Source: Candidatus Nomurabacteria bacterium (GTDB taxonomy: Bacteria; Patescibacteriota; Minisyncoccia; Phycocordibacterales; UBA918). From it: a DNA stretch of 64,000 bases. The notes under the pieces were generated by a model that saw nothing but the letters and a program-made list of their open reading frames with translations, was not told the DNA's origin and did not search any database. The stretch lies in contig JACKGE010000001.1 of the NCBI GenBank assembly GCA_020632155.1, positions 92,011 to 156,010 of the forward strand. Direction: 5' to 3'. This document shows positions 22,726-50,722 of this stretch, one piece after another. The position numbers were made by a program, and so were the translations under genes. Each line of letters opens with the position of its first letter. Positions within the stretch are counted from its first letter, which is position 1.

Positions 22726-22764
22726 TCTGTTACCTAGACAAAAGCCGCGCCCTATGGGCGCGGC
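22726..22764 (+). terminator. 18-bp perfect hairpin (TAGACAAAAGCCGCGCCC-TAT-GGGCGCGGCTTTTGTCTA)
   Basis: perfect inverted repeat after small + strand gene. Confidence 0.55.
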
Positions 22765-22796
22765 TTTTGTCTAGGCATAGTGATACGCTTACTAAT

Positions 22797-22833
22797 AATC
22801 AAAAAACCTGCGCAAGGCGCAGGTTTTTTGATT
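22797..22833. terminator. bidirectional terminator abutting the rplB stop codon (AATCAAAAAACCTGCGC-AAG-GCGCAGGTTTTTTGATT)
   Basis: 17-bp stem with A6/T6 flanks; would terminate rplC-rplB transcription before rpsS. Confidence 0.65.
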
Positions 22834-23695
22834 ATTTCTTCCTGTTCTGCATGAGCTTGCCGGGTTTGCGGCGAGACACGATGAACTTGTTTGAGTACTT
22901 CTTTGGTTTACGGGTCTTTTGACCTTTACCAGTCGGACGACCTTGTGCGGTGCGTGAACGCTTGTGACCACGAGGACTGCGTCCCTCACCACCTCCATGT
23001 GGGTGATCAACTGCGTTCTTGGCGCTACCACGTGTCTTCGGGCGAAGACCCATATGGCGAGCACGTCCCGCCTTACCGATGTTTACCAAACGGTGTTCCT
23101 CATTTGAGGCTTCACCAACTGTTGCCCAGCAAGTCGAGAGGATACGGCGCACCTCCGATGATGGGAGTTTGAGCTGCGTGTACCCACCGTCATGAGCTAC
23201 CACCTCGGCGTAGTTACCGGCGCTACGCGCAATGCGAGCTCCAGCACCCGGCTTTAGTTCAATAGCGTAGACAAAGGTACCTGCTGGTAGTTTACCAAGT
23301 GGCAAACGATTACCAAGCTTAGCCTTTGCTTTCTCCGAAACGGTGAAGGTATCACCTACCTTCATACGCTGTGGTGCTACGATGTAGCGACGCTCACCGT
23401 CTTTGTAGAGTACAAGGGCGATAAACGCGCTACGGTAGGGATCGTATTCGACAGATTCTACCTTCGCTGGAATATCCTTCTTATCGAACTTGAAGTCGAT
23501 CTCACGATACTTGCGCTTGTTGCCAGCACCACGATACCACGTAGTGGTACGACCTTGACTGTTACGACCACCGGTTGAACTCTTACCCTTTACAAGGGCC
23601 TTGTGTGGCTGGTTCTTAGAGCCTGAGAGTTTCTCTTTGTATGAGACAACGGTCATGCCACGACGACCAGCTGATGTTGGTTTGTATTTTTTCAT
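22832..23695 (-). CDS. rplB: 50S ribosomal protein L2
   Basis: 287 aa; ...GGGEGRSPRGHKRS... Confidence 0.93.
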   Translation of the reverse strand: MKKYKPTSAGRRGMTVVSYKEKLSGSKNQPHKALVKGKSSTGGRNSQGRTTTWYRGAGNKRKYREIDFKFDKKDIPAKVESVEYDPYRSAFIALVLYKDGERRYIVAPQRMKVGDTFTVSEKAKAKLGNRLPLGKLPAGTFVYAIELKPGAGARIARSAGNYAEVVAHDGGYTQLKLPSSEVRRILSTCWATVGEASNEEHRLVNIGKAGRARHMGLRPKTRGSAKNAVDHPHGGGEGRSPRGHKRSRTAQGRPTGKGQKTRKPKKYSNKFIVSRRKPGKLMQNRKK

Positions 23696-25385: not shown

Positions 25386-25594
25386 TTACTTTGGACTATC
25401 CTAATAAATTCTTATTAAGACCCAAACAAAATCGCACTTGGCAAGTCGCGAGCACAGCTCACGCATTACCAAGCGCGATTTTGTGCCCATTGGTTCTCAG
25501 GAATGCAGGCACTCCCTCACCGAACATAGGTCTTTAATAAGCTGGTGGTAGTATACGGATTTTGGACAAATTAGCAAGTTGCGCACCAATGTGA

Positions 25595-25624
25595 TTGACA
25601 AAAGCCTCATTGGAGCGGTATGGT
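25595..25624 (+). promoter_or_regulatory. putative promoter TTGACA-18-TATGGT driving the small peptide ORF
   Basis: sequence-only. Confidence 0.35.
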
Positions 25625-25634
25625 ACGAAGTAGG

Positions 25635-25691
25635 AGGGGTCAGCATGCGGACAGACCTTCTCTTGATCCTCGTGATCTTTTTGTACATATT
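25635..25691 (+). CDS. 18-aa hydrophobic peptide MRTDLLLILVIFLYIFRA (type I toxin-like, Ibs/Sib style) between rpsJ and rplC
   Basis: AGGAGGGG SD 6 nt upstream of ATG, own promoter, downstream terminator; too short for ORF track. Confidence 0.3.
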
Positions 25692-25842
25692 CCGCGCATA
25701 AGGAAGCTGCGATGAAAAGCAGGAATTGTGAAAGGATTTTGACAACCTTCGGATTCCTCCTCAACTATCGCAACCCTCATTGGTAGGACTACGAAGCCTG
25801 CCAAAGACCGCTAGGCCGGATAGCCTGTGAGATAAAGAAGCT

Positions 25843-25889
25843 CTGCGATGTAACCACCAACGTGTCACGTCGCAGGGCTTTTCTTTTTG
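25843..25889 (+). terminator. plus-strand hairpin + T-run (CTGCGATG...CGTCGCAG GGCTTTTCTTTTTG)
   Basis: 8-bp stem with G.T wobble, T-rich tail. Confidence 0.5.
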
Positions 25890-25895
25890 AAAATA

Positions 25896-25935
25896 AACCA
25901 AAACCCCGCGGCTGAAGCCGCGGGGTTTTGGTTTT
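25896..25935. terminator. bidirectional GC-rich terminator (AAACCCCGCGGC-TGAA-GCCGCGGGGTTTTGGTTTT) downstream of rpsJ
   Basis: 9-bp GC stem with A/T runs both sides; separates rpsJ from rplC. Confidence 0.65.
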
Positions 25936-26076
25936 GGCAACTAAGTTGAACTATTCTGAGGAAAAATGGATGAGATGCAAGGCACCGGAGGAAAATAATG
26001 TGAGTGCGGCTACTAGCCGAGCGAACATTATTTTACCGATCGGTAACAAAGCAGGTCGCCATTTTTACCAGAATAA

Positions 26077-26538: not shown

Positions 26539-27729
26539 CTAGGCAACAATTTTAGTTACCACACCGGCACCAACAGTCTTACCACCCTCACGGATAGCAA
26601 AGCTCTGCTGTTCCTCAAGTGCTACTGGAGCTACAAGCTTAACCTTAAAGGTCGCAGTATCACCAGGCATAACCATCTCAACACCATCAGCGAGGCTTAC
26701 CTCACCGGTAACGTCAGTGGTACGAATGTAGAACTGTGGCTTGTAACCGGTAAAGAATGGAGTGTGACGACCACCTTCGTCTTTCGCGAGGACGTATACC
26801 TCAGCTTCAAACTCAGTGTGTGGGGTCACGCTGCCAGGAGCAGAAATGACTTGACCACGGTGAACGTCTTCCTTCTTTGTACCACGGAGCAAGATACCAG
26901 CGTTGTCACCAGCCTGAGCTGAATCAAGTGACTTGTTGAACATTTCAACACCGGTAACAGTGGTCTTAGTAGTGTCTTTGATACCAACGATCTCACACTC
27001 ATCACCAACCTTGACTTGACCGCGTTCTACACGACCGGTTACTACCGTACCGCGACCTTCAATTGAGAAGATGTCCTCGATTGGCATCAAGAATGGCTTG
27101 TCGAGTTCACGAACTGGCATTGGGAAGTATGAATCCATCGCATCAACGAGCTCGAGCACCTTAGCACCCCAGTCTCCATTTGGCTCCTCAAGAGCCTTAA
27201 GACCTGAACCCTTGATGATCGGAGCATCAGCACCTTCATAACCATTGGCAGTAAGGAGTTCACGAAGTTCCTCCTCAACCAACATGATCATGTCCTCATC
27301 GTCGACCATGTCGCACTTGTTAAGGAATACGATGATCTTTGGCACACCCACCTGCTTTGCAAGGAGTACGTGCTCACGAGTCTGAGGCATAGCACCATCA
27401 GTAGCTGCTACTACGAGCACAGCGCCGTCCATCTGGGCAGCACCAGTGATCATGTTCTTGATGTAGTCAGCGTGCCCTGGAGCGTCAATATGAGCGTAGT
27501 GACGATTTGGTGTCCAGTACTCTGAGTGAGAAAGAGAAATAGTAATACCTCGCGCCTTCTCTTCTGGCGCTTTGTCGATGTCCTCAACAGCCTTTACGTT
27601 AGCGCCGTAGTCGCCGCCTTTGGCATTGAGAACCTGAAGGATAGCAGCAGTGAGCGTAGTCTTACCATGGTCTACGTGACCAATGGTACCTACGTTCATG
27701 TGCGGCTTTGAACGATCAAAATCTGACAT
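26539..27729 (-). CDS. tuf: elongation factor Tu
   Basis: [30 protein letters not shown]...; start at internal Met of ORF 26539..27762. Confidence 0.95.
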
Positions 27730-28030
27730 AAACTTTAAGTTAATGTAAGTAATAATCCGCACACAGCTGCTTTTTTAATGCATAAAAAAGCCGTGCACGT
27801 GCACTCAGGGAGAGTGGCGCGAGAACGACACACTCTCTTTGGGCACACATACGTGTGAAAGAGCATTGATATTTACTCCCACACAGCAAAATAGCTGTTA
27901 GCGGTGGCGGTATGGTACATGAGCCGCCTTAAGATTGCAAGTGTGTTTCGTACGCCGCTTGTTGTTTGACAGCTTCCGTTTCTCTGGTACTTTAAATCAC
28001 AATTTGGCACCAAACTTAAGGAGGTTAGCC

Positions 28031-28627
28031 ATGTTCTTCAGATTGCTTCAGGCAGTTTTGTCTGCTCTTCTGTTCAGCACTGCTGCAAGCTATGCTGCGC
28101 AAAAGCAGTTGGCTATCGGCGGGCCCACGTCGCAGCCAATTGGTCACTATGGATTCTGTCAGCGCCTGCCGGCAGAGTGCCGGTCGAATGCGAAAGATTA
28201 CAGGCTGGTCTTGACGCGGGGAATGCTGCTACAAATAAGCGGAATCAACCGGCGCGTAAACGAGTCAGTCCGTCCTCGCAACGACATCGATGTCTACGGA
28301 CGCGATGAGTGGTGGGCTTTGCCGAGCGATGTCGGTGACTGCGAGGACTACGCGCTGCTCAAGCGGCAACTATTGCACCAAGCCGGCATACCGCTATCTA
28401 GCCTTCTAATTGGCGTAGTGCGACAGAAAAATGGCGATGGTCACGCAGTGCTGGTCGTTCGAACAACCAGAGGCAACTTGGTCCTCGATAACCTGACGGA
28501 CAAAATTCGCCCATGGGATGAGGTTCCTTACCGTTGGCTCAAGGTCCAAGCGCCAGAACACAGCGGCAAGTGGCGCACCGTGAATCTCGTTGATCTTGAC
28601 CCAGCCACCGCCTCACTGTCGGAGTAA
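28031..28627 (+). CDS. secreted transglutaminase-like cysteine protease (BTLCP/LapG-like, COG3672)
   Basis: AAGGAGG SD; signal peptide MFFRLLQAVLSALLFSTAASYA; YGRDEWWALPSDVGDCEDYALLKRQLL...DGHAVLVVRTTRGNLVLDN matches the BTLCP Cys-His-Asp core; higher GC than flanks. Confidence 0.7.
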   Translation: MFFRLLQAVLSALLFSTAASYAAQKQLAIGGPTSQPIGHYGFCQRLPAECRSNAKDYRLVLTRGMLLQISGINRRVNESVRPRNDIDVYGRDEWWALPSDVGDCEDYALLKRQLLHQAGIPLSSLLIGVVRQKNGDGHAVLVVRTTRGNLVLDNLTDKIRPWDEVPYRWLKVQAPEHSGKWRTVNLVDLDPATASLSE

Positions 28628-28742
28628 TCAGACGCGGAGGCTCTGAACCATCAGGTTCGGGGCCTTATTAATTCACACGTCTCTACAGTTATCGCTAGCA
28701 AAAAACGGTATCCTATAGACAGAAGCAACGAGGGGAGACCTA

Positions 28743-29150
28743 ATGCTCAGTTTCGACGCCTTGGAACGAGCATTTGAATCTGCTCGTGTTCAATCAAATA
28801 AATACAATGGCCGCACAGCCAACGAAAAGGGGCAACGCGCCGAAGTGCGCTGCCTCAATGCAGTCAAGGAAGTCATCGCTGACTGCCCGTGGGCGTACAG
28901 TGCCCGTCTTGCCAGTCAAAAGGAGGACTCATCCGGCATCGACATCGTGATTGACTCCGTTCTTGGGAAGCTCTATCTTCAAGTAAAGAGTTCCCGGTAC
29001 GGCGCATTTCGATACCGGCGTAAGCGGCGGCGAGCTGAAGCTCTGATAATCATCGTCTTTGAGAATATGCACGATGAAAAGCTCAAGCGAAAGGTGCACA
29101 ATGCCCTATATGTCTTACGCAGACGAGTTCTACAACTGCGGCACAACTAG
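28743..29150 (+). CDS. hypothetical protein (135 aa), possible PD-(D/E)xK-like motif (GIDIVID...LQVK)
   Basis: complete ORF in same higher-GC islet. Confidence 0.45.
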   Translation: MLSFDALERAFESARVQSNKYNGRTANEKGQRAEVRCLNAVKEVIADCPWAYSARLASQKEDSSGIDIVIDSVLGKLYLQVKSSRYGAFRYRRKRRRAEALIIIVFENMHDEKLKRKVHNALYVLRRRVLQLRHN

Positions 29151-29152
29151 CA

Positions 29153-29177
29153 AACCGGCGCTCCCGCGCCGGTTTTG
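29153..29177 (+). terminator. hairpin terminator AACCGGCGC-TCCC-GCGCCGGTTTTG
   Basis: 9-bp GC stem + T-run. Confidence 0.6.
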
Positions 29178-29356
29178 TGATTACTGTTCGATATCTTCAT
29201 CGAACATTCCAAGACAGACAAAGTGTGCTCCCTCACGAAACAGTCCTCGGCGCTGGTGTTTGCTATCGTGAGTTTCCCTGCTCCAGCGGCGCACCAACGC
29301 CTGAAGCGAGATGAGGTCCGTTCTGTATCCATTAACAATGTGCCACGGAATTATGT

Positions 29357-29400
29357 AAAACGCAAAACTACATTACAAGTGTAATGTAGTTTTGCGTTTT
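29357..29400. terminator. perfect 20-bp hairpin AAAACGCAAAACTACATTAC-AAGT-GTAATGTAGTTTTGCGTTTT (bidirectional)
   Basis: perfect palindrome with A4/T4 flanks. Confidence 0.55.
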
Positions 29401-29464
29401 ACTACTTAAGTCCGACTTAGTAGCTTATTCCGCCTTCTTCTTACAGAAGCTGTTCAGGTTGTAT

Positions 29465-29500
29465 GACAGAACCCTGCAAGCAAGCTTGCAGGGTTCTGTC
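29465..29500 (-). terminator. perfect 16-bp hairpin GACAGAACCCTGCAAG-CAAG-CTTGCAGGGTTCTGTC downstream of fusA
   Basis: perfect palindrome 24 nt after fusA stop. Confidence 0.55.
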
Positions 29501-29523
29501 GACAACCTCTTGCAGAATGACAC

Positions 29524-31683
<2,160 letters not shown>

Positions 31684-32557: not shown

Positions 32558-32614
32558 TTTCTGAAAGAATGCGGTATGATACGCGTATGGACCTCTAACC
32601 ATACGCGTTTTCAT

Positions 32615-34672
32615 ATGAACAAAGATTTTGATGTAGTTGTCATTGGTGCCGGCTCCGGTGGTCTTACCGCCGCGATCGGTTTTGCCAAAGTGGGCAAACG
32701 CGTACTTCTTATTGAACGCGAACATATGGGCGGTGAGTGTACGAACTCCGGCTGCGTACCGAGTAAAGCCCTACTCCATTTTGCCAAAGAGCACTACGCC
32801 GGAAACCCGAAGTACGCCAAGCTGGGTGAGGCACTTCCCTACGTGCGCTCCAAGATAGAAGCTATCCGCGCCGAGGAAAGCGTAGACGAGCTTGAGAAAC
32901 ACGGTATTGCTACCGTTATGGGTGAAGCAAAATTTACTGCTCCTTGTGTCGTTGAGGTAAATGGGACTGCGTATCGTTTCAAAAAGGCCGTTATTGCAAC
33001 TGGTTCATCGCCACGCACAACAGAGATTGCTGGACTCAATACAGAAGATCTTCTCACCAACCAAACTATATTTGGGCTTACGGAATTACCAAAACGACTT
33101 CTTATCATCGGCAGTGGTCCTATTGGCCTAGAGATGGCCAATGCCTTTGCCCTCCTTGGAACTAAGGTCACCATTGCAACCATCGATACTACCCTCGCAC
33201 GCCTCGAAGAACCGGCGGTAGCTAAGTTGCTACAAGAACGTTTCAAGGAACTCGATATCGCCGTCATTTTGCGTGCATTTATCAATGAAGTACGCGGTCG
33301 CGAGGCGGTGATTGATATCAAAGACGGTGAGACGATAATCGGACAGGAAACAGCCGCGTTTGACAAAGTGCTTGTCGCCATTGGACGAGTACCCAATCTC
33401 CCTCAAGGACTCGAAGCGGCTGGTATTCAGTTTAACCAGCACGGTATCGAGGTTGATAGCCAGCACCGCACCAGCAATCGACATGTCTATGCAGTTGGTG
33501 ATGTAGCGCAACGTCTTAAGTTCACTCATACTGCCAACGACGTAGCGCGGCAGGTGGTCACCCACGTAGTAAGTCGCGGACTTCTGCGCTTTGATAGTGA
33601 CAAAGCGGTGCCGAAAGTAACCTACACCGAACCGGAAATGGCTCAGGTTGGACTATCGTACGCAGCAGCAGTGGAAAAATATTCAGAGGCGGAAGTGATG
33701 CGTATTGAGGTACCGTATGAAGATAGCGACCGCGCCAAGACTGACAACAATACAACGGGTGTAGTTATTGTAAGCGTGCGACGCCTTAGTGGTACCGTAC
33801 TCGGAGCTAGTATTGCCGGCCAGCACGCCGGTGAGCTCATTAGTATCTTTACACTGGCTATCGATCAAAAGTTATCACTCTGGCGCCTTCGCCGACTGAT
33901 TTTTGCCTACCCCACCTATGGCCTCCTGATAAAGAAGGCAGCGGATGTATTTTTTGCCGAGCAGCTGAGGAACCTCAAGGCTGATTTTCTCTTCCTGCTT
34001 AAAAAACACGCTCCCAAACTTATCGCTCTTACATTCTGGCTTGCACTCATTTACACCTTCCAGCACTATCGTATTTCACACCACCTTACCTACCGCGACA
34101 TGCTATTGTCGCTCTATGAGTTCTTCACCATGTCGATGTGGGGGCCACTTATCTATATTGTGCTCTACGCCTTGCGACCACTCATCCTCTTTCCAGCCAC
34201 CCTCCTGACCGCGCTTTCCGGTGCACTCTTTGGACTCTGGTGGGGCATTCTCTACACCGTAATTGGAGAAAACATGTCAGCGAACTTAGCCTACAGTATT
34301 GGTCGCTTCTTTGGTAAGGACCTTCGCCTTGAGGACACCTTTATGGGCCATTGGGTTGAGTGGCTACGAGCACGCCCGTTTGAGTCGGTACTATTTATGC
34401 GTCTCTTTTACGTACCATTTGACCTTGCCAACTATGGCTCTGGGGTACTTAAGGTATCGTGGCCTAGTTATGCTCTGGCAACGTTTGTCGGTATCATCCC
34501 CGGACTTACCACCTTTGTGGCGCTTGGCGCTGCCGTTGACGTCATGGAGCTACGGATGGAAGGACTTAGTTTCAACGCCTTTGATCCACGGTATCTGGCA
34601 CTTTCGGTAAGTCTGTTCGTGACCTCGGTGGTACTGTCGCGATATCTAAAACGCTGGAAAGCGACACAATAA
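32615..34672 (+). CDS. fusion: FAD-dependent pyridine nucleotide-disulfide oxidoreductase (mercuric reductase/dihydrolipoamide dehydrogenase-like) + C-terminal DedA/TVP38-TMEM64 membrane domain
   Basis: DVVVIGAGSGG, redox-active GGECTNSGCVPSK, NAD-binding GxGxxG; C-terminal ~230 aa polytopic DedA-like segment. Confidence 0.75.
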   Translation: MNKDFDVVVIGAGSGGLTAAIGFAKVGKRVLLIEREHMGGECTNSGCVPSKALLHFAKEHYAGNPKYAKLGEALPYVRSKIEAIRAEESVDELEKHGIATVMGEAKFTAPCVVEVNGTAYRFKKAVIATGSSPRTTEIAGLNTEDLLTNQTIFGLTELPKRLLIIGSGPIGLEMANAFALLGTKVTIATIDTTLARLEEPAVAKLLQERFKELDIAVILRAFINEVRGREAVIDIKDGETIIGQETAAFDKVLVAIGRVPNLPQGLEAAGIQFNQHGIEVDSQHRTSNRHVYAVGDVAQRLKFTHTANDVARQVVTHVVSRGLLRFDSDKAVPKVTYTEPEMAQVGLSYAAAVEKYSEAEVMRIEVPYEDSDRAKTDNNTTGVVIVSVRRLSGTVLGASIAGQHAGELISIFTLAIDQKLSLWRLRRLIFAYPTYGLLIKKAADVFFAEQLRNLKADFLFLLKKHAPKLIALTFWLALIYTFQHYRISHHLTYRDMLLSLYEFFTMSMWGPLIYIVLYALRPLILFPATLLTALSGALFGLWWGILYTVIGENMSANLAYSIGRFFGKDLRLEDTFMGHWVEWLRARPFESVLFMRLFYVPFDLANYGSGVLKVSWPSYALATFVGIIPGLTTFVALGAAVDVMELRMEGLSFNAFDPRYLALSVSLFVTSVVLSRYLKRWKATQ

Positions 34673-34702
34673 AAAAGTCCGAGCACTGCTCGGACTTTTT
34701 TA
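34671..34702. terminator. bidirectional terminator AAAAAAGTCCGAGC-ACT-GCTCGGACTTTTTT
   Basis: perfect 9-bp stem, A6/T6 flanks. Confidence 0.7.
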
Positions 34703-34913
34703 TAGTAGTGTCAGCCTTATTTCTTTTTAGCGGCCTTCTTCACTGCCTTCTTGGCAACTTTTTTCTTTTTGTCCATGATCGTTTGCATAGCTAGTAATGC
34801 ATGATCACCTGTAGTGTGGGGAAGTTACTCCTTGGCCCAAGGGCGCTTCATGTACCAAAATTATACAAGCAAGTTTCAAACTCCAGATACAAGCAGGTGT
34901 GAATACCACAACC

Positions 34914-41395: not shown

Positions 41396-42133
41396 TCACT
41401 CCCGCGCTTTTTTATTCAACCGGCGCACCTGTTTTCGCCAAGCCCGGATGGACCATCTCTGGTCAGCATCGTACCCAGAGCTGTACAGCTTTTGCATGGT
41501 CTTCGTTTTTGGATCGATGCGCGTGCCGCGTATTTCGTACCCTAAAACCTCAAGCGGCTCTTCCAAGGTATTGACCCGTTTGGTCTTGCTGTCGTTAAGC
41601 ACGAAACCATATCGTCCAACAACCCTTCTTACGCTCGGACCTACACGCTTACCAATACGCTTGTCCGAAGAAAGCAGTACGTCATCCACATATCGCGTGC
41701 AGTGCAGACCCGCTGCTTCACAGTACTGTCCGAGCTCAAAGTCTAAGCCGCCAAAGCGGCAATAGATCTCAAACAGATACGGTGACGCAGGCGCACCTTG
41801 GATCAAGCCACCTTCACCCTGTTCGTGGAAGAAGTGGTCACGCGGCTCCAGCAACCTGAGGTCAATCCCAAGGCCATCTACAACTGCATGGAGTCGTTCG
41901 TACGTAACATAGTCGAACGCACTTTTGAGGTCAGTCTTGAAATAGTAGTGGTGTCCTCGCCGTGTGTGTCCGATAATGTCCAGGCCTGGGTCGTGATATT
42001 CGATAGGGCCGGCGTCTTTCAGGAACAGCGTGTGTACATCTCGAACGGCAGTGTTTGGACTGTACGCAACTCTACCGCCATCTAACGTTAATCTTTTAAA
42101 CCCCGGAGGGGTCAGATGCCTAATTTTGGCCAT
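41396..42133 (-). CDS. compact reverse transcriptase (RVT_1 only, 245 aa)
   Basis: RT motifs FKTDLKSAFDYV, QGAPASPYLFEIY, RYVDDVLL (YxDD), LNDSKTK, LGYEI; SD GGGAG-7-ATG. Confidence 0.8.
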   Translation of the reverse strand: MAKIRHLTPPGFKRLTLDGGRVAYSPNTAVRDVHTLFLKDAGPIEYHDPGLDIIGHTRRGHHYYFKTDLKSAFDYVTYERLHAVVDGLGIDLRLLEPRDHFFHEQGEGGLIQGAPASPYLFEIYCRFGGLDFELGQYCEAAGLHCTRYVDDVLLSSDKRIGKRVGPSVRRVVGRYGFVLNDSKTKRVNTLEEPLEVLGYEIRGTRIDPKTKTMQKLYSSGYDADQRWSIRAWRKQVRRLNKKARE

Positions 42134-42233
42134 TCCCTTTCTCCCAGAGTTTGGAACTAATTTAGCCTACTATACTAATTTATTAATCCTTTACAAGTAA
42201 CGAAGCGGTAACGCGCCGAGGTTTTCTTTTTTG

Positions 42234-42503
42234 CTATCGTCTGCGGTATAGATGAGCGAGAAAAATAAGAATGGACAGAGGAATGATACTTAGTGCCATG
42301 GTAAACAAAAGTTGAGGTTGTTTATGCAAGTAAGCATTCAAAAAAATATTAACTTGCAGGAACAACGATCCCCACAACATTAACAACGATACTGCGTTAG
42401 CCTCTTTGAGCTTTATAATACGAATGATCTGTGGCAGGAAAATAGCTGGTGTGATGAAACTGGCAAACACTACAACCCAATCTGAAAGTGAGATTATGTC
42501 CAT
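42234..42503 (-). CDS. small 2-3 TM membrane protein (89 aa) immediately upstream of RT
   Basis: hydrophobic helices, C-terminal RRR. Confidence 0.5.
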   Translation of the reverse strand: MDIISLSDWVVVFASFITPAIFLPQIIRIIKLKEANAVSLLMLWGSLFLQVNIFLNAYLHKQPQLLFTMALSIIPLSILIFLAHLYRRR

Positions 42504-42573
42504 ACAATCATTTTATCAGGTTCTTTTATAGTTCATCGGAATAATCCTCGGCAACTTGTCTACAGTAGCTGAC

Positions 42574-43452
42574 CTACAAACCTTTGAGGCTCAATAACAA
42601 AATTCCTGTAGTTACGATAATAAGTCCAAGGGTATTTTTGAATGTAACTTTTTCTTTTAGGAAAGTTACTCCTAAAATAAATACAAAAATAGGAGTTACC
42701 GCAGTGAGAGGAGAAGCTACTGACGCCGGAAGTATTTCAAATGCTAGCCAAAGCATCAACACTGCTAATGTGCTAAGTAAACCTGAAAGAAAGGCATATT
42801 TATGTTCAGCAAAGCGAGAGAAAAATGTTTTTAATTGACGCAGACTTTGTTTTTGCATCCTCAGGAATACGATCCCAACAGGTACTTCCGCTATAGCTAG
42901 AGCAATGAGAAATGTTCCTGCAGATGTCTGGTCAATTATGTGTTTTCCTGCAACATCAGAAATTGAGACAGCAACCGCAGCCACTAATGGCCACACAATG
43001 AGGTGAAATTGCCAGTGTGCAATCCTATCTTTTACCCACTCACGTTTTGACGGAGAACTTACTATAAGAACTCCAACGACAACCAACCCGAGCGCAATCC
43101 ATGCCCAAAATAAAAGTCTTTCTTGCAAAAATAAATATGCAAAAAATATTGTAAATATTGGGTATGTAGAAAAAAGTACACCTGTAATGATGGTGTCACC
43201 ACGAGCAGTAGCGAAGAATACGAAAGCTTCTGACAAGATAGCGCTCAGTATGGCAATCGGTAGCACATATAGAACATCGCTCCATACTCCATTGGTAAAC
43301 ATTGCAAAAGGTATCCATATCAGGACACCTGTTAAAGCATTCATCATGAAAGCCATGCTTTCAGAAAAATCTTGTAGACTGCGTCGCATAAAAATATACG
43401 ACAATGCCTGAAGCAATGCTGTTAGTAGACCAAAAATGATACCAATCGACAT
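42574..43452 (-). CDS. EamA/DMT family transporter
   Basis: 292 aa, 10 TM, duplicated EamA halves. Confidence 0.8.
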   Translation of the reverse strand: MSIGIIFGLLTALLQALSYIFMRRSLQDFSESMAFMMNALTGVLIWIPFAMFTNGVWSDVLYVLPIAILSAILSEAFVFFATARGDTIITGVLFSTYPIFTIFFAYLFLQERLLFWAWIALGLVVVGVLIVSSPSKREWVKDRIAHWQFHLIVWPLVAAVAVSISDVAGKHIIDQTSAGTFLIALAIAEVPVGIVFLRMQKQSLRQLKTFFSRFAEHKYAFLSGLLSTLAVLMLWLAFEILPASVASPLTAVTPIFVFILGVTFLKEKVTFKNTLGLIIVTTGILLLSLKGL

Positions 43453-43518
43453 GTTTCATAGTATAACAAACTTGCTATTTCAGATAATCTGAATGACAAC
43501 TACTAGAACAGTGATCAT

Positions 43519-43560
43519 ACAAAACAAAACTGCTCCCAATTGGGAGCAGTTTTGTTTTTT
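43519..43560. terminator. bidirectional terminator AAAACAAAACTGCTCCC-AATT-GGGAGCAGTTTTGTTTT downstream of rpsG
   Basis: perfect 17-bp stem. Confidence 0.7.
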
Positions 43561-43680: not shown

Positions 43681-44154
43681 CTACCAGGCGAAGTGGGCAA
43701 AGGCCCTGTTAGCCTCAGCCATCTTATGCGTATCCTCCTTCTTCTTCACGGCATCACCTTCGTTCTTAGCAGCAAGCATAAGCTCGTTTGCTAGTGCTTT
43801 ATGCATTGGGATGCCCTTTTGCTTGCGGGCAGCAGCAATGATCCAGCGCAGGGCCAAAGCAGTGCGGCGCTCTGGACGCACCTCACGCGGCACCTGATAG
43901 TTGGCGCCACCGACGCGACGGCTACGCACCTCCATCATTGGACCGGCGTTTTGGAGCGCCGTGTTGAATATCTCAACCGGCTCACCCCCGCCCTCCTTGG
44001 CGTTCTTAATGATATCGAAAGCAGCATACACGATCTTGCGTGCTGTCTCCTTTTGACCACGAAGCATGATGTAGTTGATAAGGCGCTCAACAGCAACCTC
44101 ACCGAACTTGATGTCAGGCGTGACTATGGGTCGTTTTTTTATTGGTCGTCTCAT
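43681..44154 (-). CDS. rpsG: 30S ribosomal protein S7
   Basis: MRRPIKKRPIVTPDIKFGEVAVERLINYIMLRGQK... Confidence 0.93.
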   Translation of the reverse strand: MRRPIKKRPIVTPDIKFGEVAVERLINYIMLRGQKETARKIVYAAFDIIKNAKEGGGEPVEIFNTALQNAGPMMEVRSRRVGGANYQVPREVRPERRTALALRWIIAAARKQKGIPMHKALANELMLAAKNEGDAVKKKEDTHKMAEANRAFAHFAW

Positions 44155-44399
44155 GACTTTAGTTATTAGTTATGAGCGAAAAAATGAGAAGTATGACACA
44201 TCATATTTTCATTCTTCGCATAATGGTCACTCTTTCGAGTACCAATCGGTATCTGTAGCGAATATAAACTATTAAGTTACTCGTTTTAAATCAGGTGGAA
44301 ATTGTTTTGTAGCGCGGCGCACAAGGAATGTGGCGCGAGCTTTATTTGGCAATAAAGTGAGTGTCACATTACCGCCGTGCAACAAAGCTACAGAACGAT

Positions 44400-44813
44400 T
44401 TACTCTGATTTAGGGCGCTTAGCGCCGTAGCGACTACGTCCCCGACGTCGCGCATCTACACCCGCTGAGTCGTACTTACCTCGTACGACGGTGTAGTTGA
44501 CACCGATGTCTTTAACACGACCGCCACGTACCAATACCACAGAGTGCTCCTGCAAGTTGTGTCCCTCACCAGGGATGTAGGCAGTGATCTCCTGACCGTT
44601 AGTAAGACGAACACGGGCGATCTTTCGAATCGCAGAGTTCGGCTTACGCGGCGTCTTGGTGGTCACACGCGTACAGACCCCACGCTTGAATGGTGAGTTG
44701 TAGCTGTTTGGACGGTTCTTGATCTTGTCAAAACCCGACTGCAGAGCAGCTGTTTTGGTCTTGGTCGCAGTGTCGCGACGCTTACGCTTGGTTAATTGAT
44801 TGATTGTTGCCAT
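44400..44813 (-). CDS. rpsL: 30S ribosomal protein S12
   Basis: [13 protein letters not shown]...[48 protein letters not shown]; internal Met of ORF starting 44858. Confidence 0.95.
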
Positions 44814-46087: not shown

Positions 46088-46131
46088 CAGACCTATTAAT
46101 ACTGCGATTAATCGCAGTATTAATAGGTCTG
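46088..46131. repeat. perfect 44-bp palindrome CAGACCTATTAATACTGCGATTAATCGCAGTATTAATAGGTCTG
   Basis: self-reverse-complementary over all 44 nt; between rpmB and comEC C-terminal gene. Confidence 0.8.
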
Positions 46132-50240: not shown

Positions 50241-50258
50241 CAACTCAATAATAACACA

Positions 50259-50294
50259 CCCCTATATACTCCAGTTAACTGGAGTATATAGGGG
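50259..50294. repeat. perfect 36-bp palindrome CCCCTATATACTCCAGTTAACTGGAGTATATAGGGG (copy 1 of duplicated core)
   Basis: abuts stop of YerC-like gene and lies 18 nt upstream of rnhA ATG. Confidence 0.8.
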
Positions 50295-50696
50295 TTACTT
50301 TAGTGCCCGCTTCCATCGTCCTTTACCCATTGGCGGCATACCTCCCTGCAAAACAGTTTCAAGTGTCTTGAGAAATGCCTCACGATCAAATTTCTTTGAA
50401 CTGACCAATTTCAGTATTGCCGCAAAGTGTCCTTCATCGTATTTGAGAGCATAGTCACTGGCAGTTGTCTCACTCAACTTGAGTGTTTGCGATATTCTAT
50501 ATCGGGAATAACCTTTATCTAACATTACGATGGTCGCCAACCGTTTCATGTACATTACTCGTTCCGACTCAGTAAATAATTCATTAAAAAGTTCTCCAGC
50601 TGTTTTGCTGTTACAAACCGCAAAGAGATCAGTGAGTTGCTTTTGCAGTTGTTGTATGTGAGCTGACTTGAGTTCTTGTTTTGAAACGTTGGTCAT
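50295..50696 (-). CDS. TrpR-like YerC/YecD family DNA-binding protein
   Basis: ...ERVMYMKRLATIVMLDKGYSRYRISQTLKLSETTASDYALKY... resembles the YerC HTH. Confidence 0.6.
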   Translation of the reverse strand: MTNVSKQELKSAHIQQLQKQLTDLFAVCNSKTAGELFNELFTESERVMYMKRLATIVMLDKGYSRYRISQTLKLSETTASDYALKYDEGHFAAILKLVSSKKFDREAFLKTLETVLQGGMPPMGKGRWKRALK

Positions 50697-50722
50697 AATA
50701 CTCCAGTTAACTGGAGTATTAT
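50695..50722. repeat. perfect 28-bp palindrome ATAATACTCCAGTTAACTGGAGTATTAT (copy 2), overlapping ATG and SD of YerC-like gene
   Basis: shares 22-bp core ATACTCCAGTTAACTGGAGTAT with 50259-50294. Confidence 0.8.

Follow-up and report, generated by a model that had tools for sequence, protein, structure and literature searches.

A transglutaminase-like cysteine protease gene of Rhizobiales type in a variable slot between fusA and tuf of Candidate Phyla Radiation bacteria

Introduction

[quoted passage not shown] The question is raised by a stretch of 64,000 nucleotides (nt) of the Candidatus Nomurabacteria assembly GCA_020632155.1 (contig JACKGE010000001.1), which is referred to here as the window. 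Two plus-strand genes are found there between tuf and fusA. Gene 1 encodes the BTLCP and gene 2 (orf135) encodes a protein of 135 amino acids (aa). A first interpretation, made from the nucleotide sequence without database searches and called the sequence-only reading in the following, had described both genes as a horizontally acquired islet of elevated GC content that encodes a LapG-like protease and ends with strong hairpins. CPR bacteria (Patescibacteria) are ultra-small, mostly uncultured and presumed to be epibionts; of their surface proteins and of those for interaction with a host, little is understood.

Based on the comparisons described below, we propose, with a probability of roughly 0.7, that the spacer between fusA and tuf is a variable slot that holds an old cassette, made up of an orphan BTLCP derived from Rhizobiales and a nuclease-like gene of CPR type, and that no Lap system is involved. 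The cassette is held in one genus- or family-level clade, where it lies antisense to the elongation-factor genes.

Results

Gene 1 and the BTLCP family

The product of gene 1 was compared with the Pfam model PF06035 (Peptidase_C93). The match reached 195.4 bits with a gathering cutoff of 27 (E = 7.3e-58) and covered profile positions 2-158 of 162. The Cys-His-Asp triad is present on alignment: C104, H138 and D153 match the catalytic residues of LapG and are invariant in 123 homologs. The segment D103-C104-E105-D106 is invariant in the same number of BTLCPs and aligns to GDCEDY/F of the LapG structures 4U65 and 4FGO. Of the positions with at least 95% conservation in the 123 proteins, gene 1 has kept nearly all, the invariant ones without exception, and the Cys43/Cys50 pair is conserved. 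A signal peptide was judged by eye to comprise about residues 1-22, with its end between SYA and AQ (MFFRLLQAVLSALLFSTAASYA followed by AQ). The BTLCP copies of three other CPR loci, L013 (when read from an upstream ATG), L014 and L099, have hydrophobic leaders at the N-terminus as well. Judged from these alignments, gene 1 is a member of the BTLCP family with intact predicted catalytic and calcium-site residues. The sequence-only reading had identified it as a secreted BTLCP, and the Pfam match and the predicted signal peptide agree with this; both plus-strand open reading frames (ORFs) it had listed are present, and the peptide motifs it quoted were found in their translations.

Upstream of gene 1, a TTGACA motif was taken as a putative promoter element from reading the sequence; the promoter scan did not flag it. 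The PADLOC defence-system models gave no match for the BTLCP or orf135, and the PHROGs yielded a distant peptidase family only, for the BTLCP.

Comparison with LapG and with orphan BTLCPs

The family is best known for LapG. In a LapG-type system, a periplasmic protease under the control of cyclic di-GMP (c-di-GMP) and LapD releases a giant adhesin of a type I secretion system (T1SS), which in this case would have to be encoded elsewhere in the genome. The window protein has the Pfam family and the fold class in common with LapG of P. fluorescens (4U65) and L. pneumophila (4FGO), and its Cys, His, Asp and DCED residues, with the nucleophile Cys flanked by Ca-binding acidic residues, align with these structures. 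However, it scored only 44.5 bits with the NCBIfam LapG equivalog NF045674, which has a cutoff of 320, and the similarity to the LapG structures is remote (E = 9e-7 and 7e-3). A scan of the large ORFs and of ten non-ribosomal proteins revealed neither a giant adhesin nor a LapD-like protein in the window, as the sequence-only reading had stated. The largest ORF in the 64 kb encodes a phosphoketolase of 798 aa, and GGDEF, EAL and T1SS domains were not found among the ten non-ribosomal proteins scanned. Furthermore, no LapD-type GGDEF/EAL receptor adjoins the BTLCP gene in four other CPR loci. The closest relatives of the window protein are orphan BTLCPs of Rhizobiales, which have no LapD or T1SS neighbours. 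In addition, CPR genomes comprise about 1 Mb, and the organisms are thought to have no outer membrane. A LapG-type system is therefore very improbable here, and the label LapG-like had to be given up. Gene 1 is classed not as LapG but as a BTLCP of the orphan chromosomal type.

The orphan BTLCPs of Rhizobiales (Hyphomicrobiales), such as those of Brucella melitensis (P0050) and S. meliloti (near infC-rpmI-rplT), resemble the window protein in their length of about 200 aa, in their signal peptide and in the motifs GHYxFC...EC, GDCEDY, GHAVL and LDN. They are stand-alone genes, and their products share 51-57% identity with the window protein. In contrast to them, the window BTLCP is found in a CPR host and not in a diderm alphaproteobacterium, lies antisense within a broken str/S10 region and carries eight substitutions at positions that are otherwise 93-99% conserved. 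The Rhizobiales orphan BTLCPs form a group that includes the HvyA-type proteins. To our knowledge, HvyA of Caulobacter crescentus is the only alphaproteobacterial BTLCP that has been studied. It is a Sec-exported inhibitor of capsulation with an essential triad, and the homologs of S. meliloti and S. fredii (SMc00998, NGR_c12490) partly replace it (PMC4241560). HvyA, compared here by description only, is like the window protein with its predicted signal peptide an exported BTLCP of alphaproteobacterial type with a Cys-His-Asp triad, and it acts on the envelope without LapD. It is longer (272 aa) and encoded in a capsule-export locus, whereas the window gene lies between tuf and fusA and has no such locus around it, its neighbours being tuf, orf135 and fusA.

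Origin of the BTLCP gene

If a partial copy of itself in a metagenome-assembled genome (MAG) is disregarded, the window BTLCP shares 45-57% identity with its best homologs. All named ones but one are from Rhizobiales (Rhizobiaceae, Mesorhizobium, Brucella, Rhizobium; 51-57%). The sole exception, a Candidatus Paceibacterota protein, is the L013 copy. This copy is 67-69% identical to its best matches among the homologs of the window protein and about 55% identical to the window copy. One of these matches, P0034 (67.6%), has the gene context pyrF-DUF1330-BTLCP-comM-gshB, which is syntenic with Brucella. The BTLCPs of Brucella, of a metagenomic relative and of S. meliloti are stand-alone chromosomal genes with no LapD or T1SS neighbours. 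BTLCPs were also found on 123 plasmid records, from Rhizobiales and other Alphaproteobacteria, and in Rhizobium phages, and among the viruses of river water they are reportedly the auxiliary gene that is exchanged most often (PMC11283719). Thus, vectors for a transfer exist. Scans of viral contigs detected no BTLCP relative and only two distant relatives of orf135.

The search for the taxonomic origin gave different answers for the two genes: the named relatives of the BTLCP are almost all from Rhizobiales, and those relatives of orf135 that carry a name belong to CPR. As read from these homologies, the BTLCP gene was acquired from Alphaproteobacteria of the Rhizobiales/Hyphomicrobiales type in an old transfer between phyla. 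The proposal of a horizontal acquisition is upheld in that the BTLCP gene is foreign and of alphaproteobacterial origin; a recent or unitary islet is not borne out, as described in the following sections.

Proteobacterial best matches on a CPR contig could also be produced by an assembly or binning chimera, in which proteobacterial DNA was joined to the contig. Exact-sequence look-up among contigs of several projects gave eight that carry the BTLCP gene and 12 that carry orf135. Both junctions are covered by four contigs, one of which belongs to the NCBI MAG GCA_020428955.1, and the gene order is tuf-BTLCP-orf135-fusA in all. Other CPR genomes show a syntenic arrangement, one of them on a contig of 848 kb (JAWVHH010000004.1), and the leader and the terminator on the flanks are native. 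Because at least 8 independently assembled contigs agree on the arrangement, a chimera is virtually excluded. The record of the matching MAG protein and contig gives the organism as Candidatus Kaiserbacteria, and the window also codes for PilB and PilC (locus at 56-62 kb), ComEC and RecJ, which are typical of CPR genomes.

The variable slot between fusA and tuf

The BTLCP gene occupies the same site in the same orientation, divergent from tuf, in L013, L014 and L099. In L013, a Paceibacterota MAG, it is alone in the slot, without orf135. In L014 and L015, which include the 848-kb contig, it is accompanied by an orf135 homolog and two extra genes, whereas L099 has a single extra gene besides the BTLCP gene and the orf135 homolog. 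In L100, an orf135 homolog is likewise joined by one extra gene, and a C-terminal fragment of the BTLCP lies upstream at the contig end. The EF-Tu of the window is 87-90% identical to that of L013 and L014.

The distribution of the cassette was analyzed by scanning the window EF-G against 185,579 species-representative genomes; identity at the 80 closest loci thus obtained was 58-85%. BTLCP or orf135 genes within 7 kb of fusA were found in none of these 80 representatives. The smallest gap between fusA and tuf of these relatives measured 117 bp and the largest more than 6.7 kb. Ten of the gaps were read and contained unrelated cargo, most of which looks exported or membrane-bound by inspection. 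Examples are proteins with GYAWSxxIGWI repeats in L018 and L019 and large proteins with repeats resembling peptidoglycan-binding domains in L026 and L028.

In the EF-G tree, eight genomes form one clade with three subclades at or near 100% bootstrap support: the window with L018, L014 and L099 with L019, and L013 with L020 and L021. Each subclade contains both carriers and non-carriers, and the cassette is absent from L018, the nearest relative of the window. Between carriers the BTLCPs share 45-58% identity, in genomes whose EF-G is 78-95% identical. For the pair L014 and L099, the values are 95% for EF-G, 65% for orf139, 46% for p178 and 50% for the BTLCP; by these identities, the BTLCP and the accessory genes beside it have diverged to a similar degree. 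Since carriers in all three subclades have the BTLCP gene at one and the same site, we consider this an old transfer into a variable slot and not a recent islet. Read most simply, the gene was inserted once, long ago, into a slot of high turnover and was then lost or replaced several times.

A family of proteins of 178-182 aa was observed between the orf135 homolog and fusA in L014, L099 and L100. They lack a Pfam domain, and in their shared ending LTLCSWKP is separated by five or six variable residues from a Cys at the very end; the window has no such gene.

Gene 2 encodes a probable PD-(D/E)xK-like protein

A word-indexed search with orf135 returned five relatives only. In an exhaustive profile search, 1016 clusters at 50% identity were obtained, mostly of 115-150 aa. 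Named members are few, and all come from CPR (Paceibacterota, Parcubacteria) or unclassified bacteria; neither Pfam nor NCBIfam has a model of the family. Across 79 diverse members G30, W50, G65, D67, G75, Q80 and K82 are invariant, and E34, E61, D62, S83 and S84 are at least 90% conserved. The AlphaFold2 model of orf135, which was built with this alignment (pLDDT 97.1), consists of a helix (4-45), three strands (51-56, 68-72, 75-82), a helix (85-94), a further strand (101-104) and then a helix. It has an alpha-beta-beta-beta-alpha-beta core, in which D67 stands just before strand 2 and Q80-x-K82 lies in strand 3, as in the PD-(D/E)xK layout.

The weak Pfam matches of the family members were to PD-(D/E)xK families only, namely DUF4365 (9/79, best E = 1e-4), RE_MjaI and Mrr_cat. 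Foldseek lists were headed by Hjc, VRR-NUC and Can2 nuclease domains and by restriction and homing endonucleases, none of them significant (best E = 0.025, TM-score up to 0.46). A PDB profile search with the family gave chance matches to nucleoporins only. Compared with the small PD-(D/E)xK nucleases (archaeal Hjc, VRR-NUC, DUF4365, Mrr_cat, RE_MjaI), orf135 is alike in size (about 120-140 aa), core fold, the acidic residue at the start of beta-2 and the Glu in helix 1. It differs from them by the QxK in beta-3, where Gln replaces the usual Asp/Glu, and by the long N- and C-terminal helices. A PD-(D/E)xK-like D...QVK motif had been suspected from the sequence. The invariant D67, Q80 and K82 and the core fold make this plausible, while a significant match was not obtained; according to the family alignment and the structure model, the assignment is probable.

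Elsewhere, genes of the orf135 family are solitary in unrelated surroundings, and they often run antisense between housekeeping genes. In one natural allele (L002 2238-2645, ERZ28660125), orf135 has the substitution S84Y and a stop at codon 91, and the adjoining BTLCP is 100% identical to that of the window. This premature stop beside an intact BTLCP gene suggests that orf135 is dispensable in this population. A terminator-like hairpin follows the BTLCP stop codon, and in L014 an analogous strong terminator stands between the BTLCP gene and the orf135 homolog. Because a terminator separates them, genes 1 and 2 are regarded as neighbours, apparently of different origins, and not as an obligate pair or a demonstrated functional unit.

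A protein of 2178 aa (P0126) contains 29 separate stretches that match positions 41-78 of the orf135 profile (the W...ED..GID segment). It could be a repeat protein built from the orf135 motif or a compositional artefact.

Hairpins, composition and mobility

The sequence-only reading had described perfect palindromes of 20 and 16 bp at the end of the islet. These hairpins are real, with longer arms of 23 and 17 nt. Together with the hairpin behind orf135 (10-nt arms) they gave folding z values of -4.7 to -9.6 against shuffled controls. The hairpin with 23-nt arms has T/A-rich arm ends and is likely a bidirectional terminator between convergent transcription units. In L020, which has no BTLCP gene, a match to the DNA around the hairpin with 17-nt arms (29442-29519) was found about 110-180 nt downstream of fusA (75.6% over 78 nt); for this reason we read this hairpin as the native fusA terminator. 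The 64 kb contain ten comparable perfect palindromes, whose arms measure 14-24 nt and often end in A/T runs; most of them stand at gene ends. Since such palindromes recur across the window, the hairpins are taken as ordinary terminators and not as a feature of an islet. They appear to be the general terminator style of this genome and are probably bidirectional; at this locus they insulate convergent transcription.

The composition was analyzed with GC and tetranucleotide profiles. The window has a GC content of 49.1% and the whole region from 27763 to 29523 one of 51.2% (z 1.1 against windows of the same length); the tetranucleotide distance of the region is at the 81st percentile. The BTLCP gene has 55.6% GC (z 2.1, 99th percentile) and the highest GC at third codon positions (GC3) of 34 genes (0.613, z 2.0; the next has 0.611). 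For orf135, the GC content is 51.5% (z 0.65). The GC content of 58-60% that had been estimated by eye for 28081-28140 was confirmed as 60%, which for 60 nt amounts to a z of only 1.5. Of the presumed islet, the BTLCP gene alone stands out, modestly, whereas the whole region is not unusual. The shift is small and the argument from composition is weak.

The strongest compositional outlier of the window is 42000-43500, with 38% GC, the top tetranucleotide distance and a GC3 of 0.31 (z -3.2). It codes for an EamA-family transporter (42574-43452, minus strand) adjoining rpsG and is a better candidate for a recent transfer than the BTLCP cassette.

In view of these data, a recent mobile island, in which the BTLCP gene and orf135 arrived together, orf135 was the nuclease of the element and the long palindromes were its ends, is improbable. 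It would account for the high GC3 of the BTLCP gene and for the absence of the cassette from L018 and the 80 species representatives. The solitary position of orf135-family genes antisense between housekeeping genes resembles that of homing endonucleases, and BTLCPs do occur on Rhizobiales plasmids, in phages and among exchanged genes of river viruses. However, the BTLCP genes at the same site in three subclades have diverged to about 45-58% identity, tetranucleotide usage is not unusual, and L013 carries the BTLCP gene without orf135. The named relatives of orf135 are all from CPR, those of the BTLCP almost all alphaproteobacterial. The hallmarks of mobility that were looked for at the locus (an integrase, a tRNA target, flanking direct repeats) were not found, and the viral-contig scans gave no close viral relative. 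Palindromes of this kind are genome-wide and one is the fusA terminator, and they were consequently dropped as element ends. A strong GC or tetranucleotide island was likewise dropped, given the z of 1.1 and the 81st percentile. In contrast to a recent island, an old cassette in a variable slot is in line with both the shared site and the divergence of the BTLCPs.

Flanking genes and the tuf leader

The positions of all features are given in Table 1. tuf and fusA are both on the minus strand and thus co-directional, not convergent as had been stated; tuf is transcribed divergently from the BTLCP gene, and both cassette genes are antisense to the elongation-factor genes. The beginning of the islet had been placed at 27763. 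The segment 27763-27935 is the native promoter and leader of tuf, which is kept in relatives without the BTLCP gene, and the cargo proper is about 27936-29441.

An nhmmer search placed the leader immediately upstream of tuf both in carriers of the BTLCP gene (L013, L014, L099) and in genomes without it (L018-L021). RNAalifold predicted 49 pairs, 15 of them with compensatory changes. The observed covariation was reached in 0/500 shuffles, and the slide controls were beaten too. No Rfam family matched the leader. The segment 27730-27935 is a native element and not inserted DNA; it may represent an undescribed leader of the tuf/S10 operon.

The spacer 29176-29354 was considered as a pseudogene remnant. 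It gave no Pfam match at E up to 5 and no match to the slot genes of L014, L099, L100 or ten relatives, and the idea was dropped. A sub-threshold Rfam match to Clostridiales-1 at 29354-29514 (25.6 versus 48 bits) is a hairpin artefact. Searches of the window for tRNA, tmRNA and Rfam families gave nothing at threshold.

Further features of the region were observed on the side. The str operon is fragmented: a distance of about 12 kb, occupied by unrelated genes, separates rpsL and rpsG (43684-44813) from fusA. One of these genes (32576-34672) encodes a fusion of 698 aa, composed of a pyridine-nucleotide-disulphide oxidoreductase and a VTT domain. L013 has insertions between rpsG and fusA too. 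The gap between rplC and rpsJ (25386-26076, about 690 nt) is without a convincing ORF or an Rfam match and includes a perfect hairpin (25895-25934, arms of 19 nt); small ORFs are found at the same place in L013.

Table 1. Features of the fusA-tuf region and related loci. Positions without a locus name refer to the window.
Feature	Position	Strand	Remarks
tuf (EF-Tu, 396 aa)	26539-27729	minus	ORF and Pfam GTP_EFTU domains on identical contigs; native flank
tuf promoter-like boxes and structured 5' leader of about 170 nt	27730-27935	minus	TTGCAA-N17-TAccAT; native; nhmmer, RNAalifold
BTLCP upstream region	27936-28030	plus	TTGACA 27966-27971, weak -10 candidate, ribosome-binding site AAGGAGG 28018-28024
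Gene 1, predicted exported BTLCP (Peptidase_C93), 198 aa and stop	28031-28627	plus	PF06035 match; export predicted by eye
Terminator-like hairpin after BTLCP stop	28638-28666	plus	13-bp stem, then UUAUUAAUU; -26.2 kcal/mol, z -5.8
Gene 2, orf135, 135 aa, probable small cytoplasmic PD-(D/E)xK-like protein	28743-29150	plus	profile family, AlphaFold2 model, weak Pfam and Foldseek matches
Intrinsic terminator of orf135	29152-29175	plus	arms 29152-29161/29166-29175, 10-bp GC-rich stem, then TTTTGTG; -18.8 kcal/mol, z -4.7
Non-coding spacer	29176-29354	no strand	short minus-strand ORF fragments
Perfect hairpin, 23-nt arms	29355-29402	no strand	arms 29355-29377/29380-29402; -31.5 and -31.8 kcal/mol on the two strands
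Perfect hairpin, 17-nt arms, read as native fusA terminator	29465-29500	minus	arms 29465-29481/29484-29500; -39.6 kcal/mol
fusA (EF-G, 719 aa)	29524-31683	minus	native flank
Other palindromes	46088-46131, 22733-22775, 22794-22836, 25895-25934, 34666-34706, 43521-43558, 50258-50295, 50695-50722		loops 0-4 nt
tuf leader in relatives	L013 9586-9779; L014 8838-9051; L019 7312-7491; L018 8978-9178; L020 13515-13703; L021 10064-10255		
fusA-tuf slot cargo elsewhere	L018 7644-8899; L019 5377-6892; L026 3571-5649; L028 9750-13734; L029 9440-14758		
178-182-aa family	L014 10503-11695; L099 1700-2248; L100 771-1307		

Discussion

The locus is best explained, in our view, by an old cassette in a variable slot. 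Family membership, the intact catalytic residues, the taxonomic origin, the conservation of the site and the variability of the slot carry this reading. Following it, the BTLCP would be exported through the Sec system by means of its signal peptide, and a disulfide between Cys43 and Cys50 would probably form. Ca2+ is probably bound through D103, E105 and D106, and C104, H138 and D153 would cleave or transamidate an extracytoplasmic protein. As substrate, a protein on the bacterium's own surface or on that of its host cell would be most likely. Because LapD, a c-di-GMP module, a T1SS and a giant adhesin were not found among the large ORFs of the window, control of the BTLCP would most likely be transcriptional and not exerted by c-di-GMP. 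Gene 2 would add a free-standing small PD-(D/E)xK-like protein of CPR type, a probable nuclease.

Several points speak against this picture. Eight residues of the gene 1 product deviate from the consensus where other BTLCPs show 93-99% conservation (M27L, Y97L, R113Q, T128G, T142V, D149N, T165V and R172V), and the specificity or even the activity of the window BTLCP may have changed. orf135 has no significant sequence or fold match to any known nuclease. Export and the type of envelope are deduced from reading the sequence and from general knowledge of CPR. Finally, a neighbour-joining bootstrap tree of 122 BTLCPs (200 replicates), built to test the monophyly of the CPR copies, placed all four CPR BTLCPs in one group in 0/200 replicates; L014 and L099 were joined in 43% and the window and L013 in 10%. 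For the L013 BTLCP, the identity to Rhizobiales proteins (67-69%) exceeds that to the other CPR copies.

From the tree and the position of L013, recurrent capture or replacement in situ is conceivable. Rhizobiales BTLCPs would then have entered a recombination hotspot repeatedly and independently, and the shared site would reflect the hotspot and not descent. The slot clearly turns over, and at least one of the best matches of the L013 copy, which is itself only about 55% identical to the window copy, has a Brucella-like (Rhizobiales) context. We nevertheless regard this course of events as unlikely. The orientation is identical in every carrier, the orf135 partner lies downstream in two subclades, and the divergence of the BTLCP equals that of the neighbouring accessory genes. 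The result of the neighbour-joining tree is weak, since the BTLCP is short and lies on a long branch. A single old insertion with later losses or replacements is thus still preferred.

As a more speculative and rather doubtful extension, the BTLCP might be an effector derived from the host. A Kaiserbacteria epibiont would secrete a captured envelope-remodelling protease of Rhizobiales onto the surface of an alphaproteobacterial host. If true, the enzyme could suppress the capsule as HvyA does, or shed an adhesin, for a gain of attachment or for release, and the rapid divergence around an intact catalytic core would reflect an arms race. As for the second gene, variable slots such as the gap between fusA and tuf might be created by the orf135 family, whose members would then be free-standing PD-(D/E)xK endonucleases specific to CPR.

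BTLCPs, gene transfer into CPR and PD-(D/E)xK nucleases are of already known kinds, and current knowledge is not overturned by this locus. Further results are a recurrent accessory slot between fusA and tuf, a PD-(D/E)xK-like family of about 1000 clusters that is without annotation, and a conserved tuf leader. The ancestry of the BTLCP hints at which bacteria exchanged genes with these CPR organisms. With its alphaproteobacterial ancestry and a catalytic site that is intact in several Kaiserbacteria lineages, the BTLCP is a candidate for a host-interaction or surface-processing enzyme.

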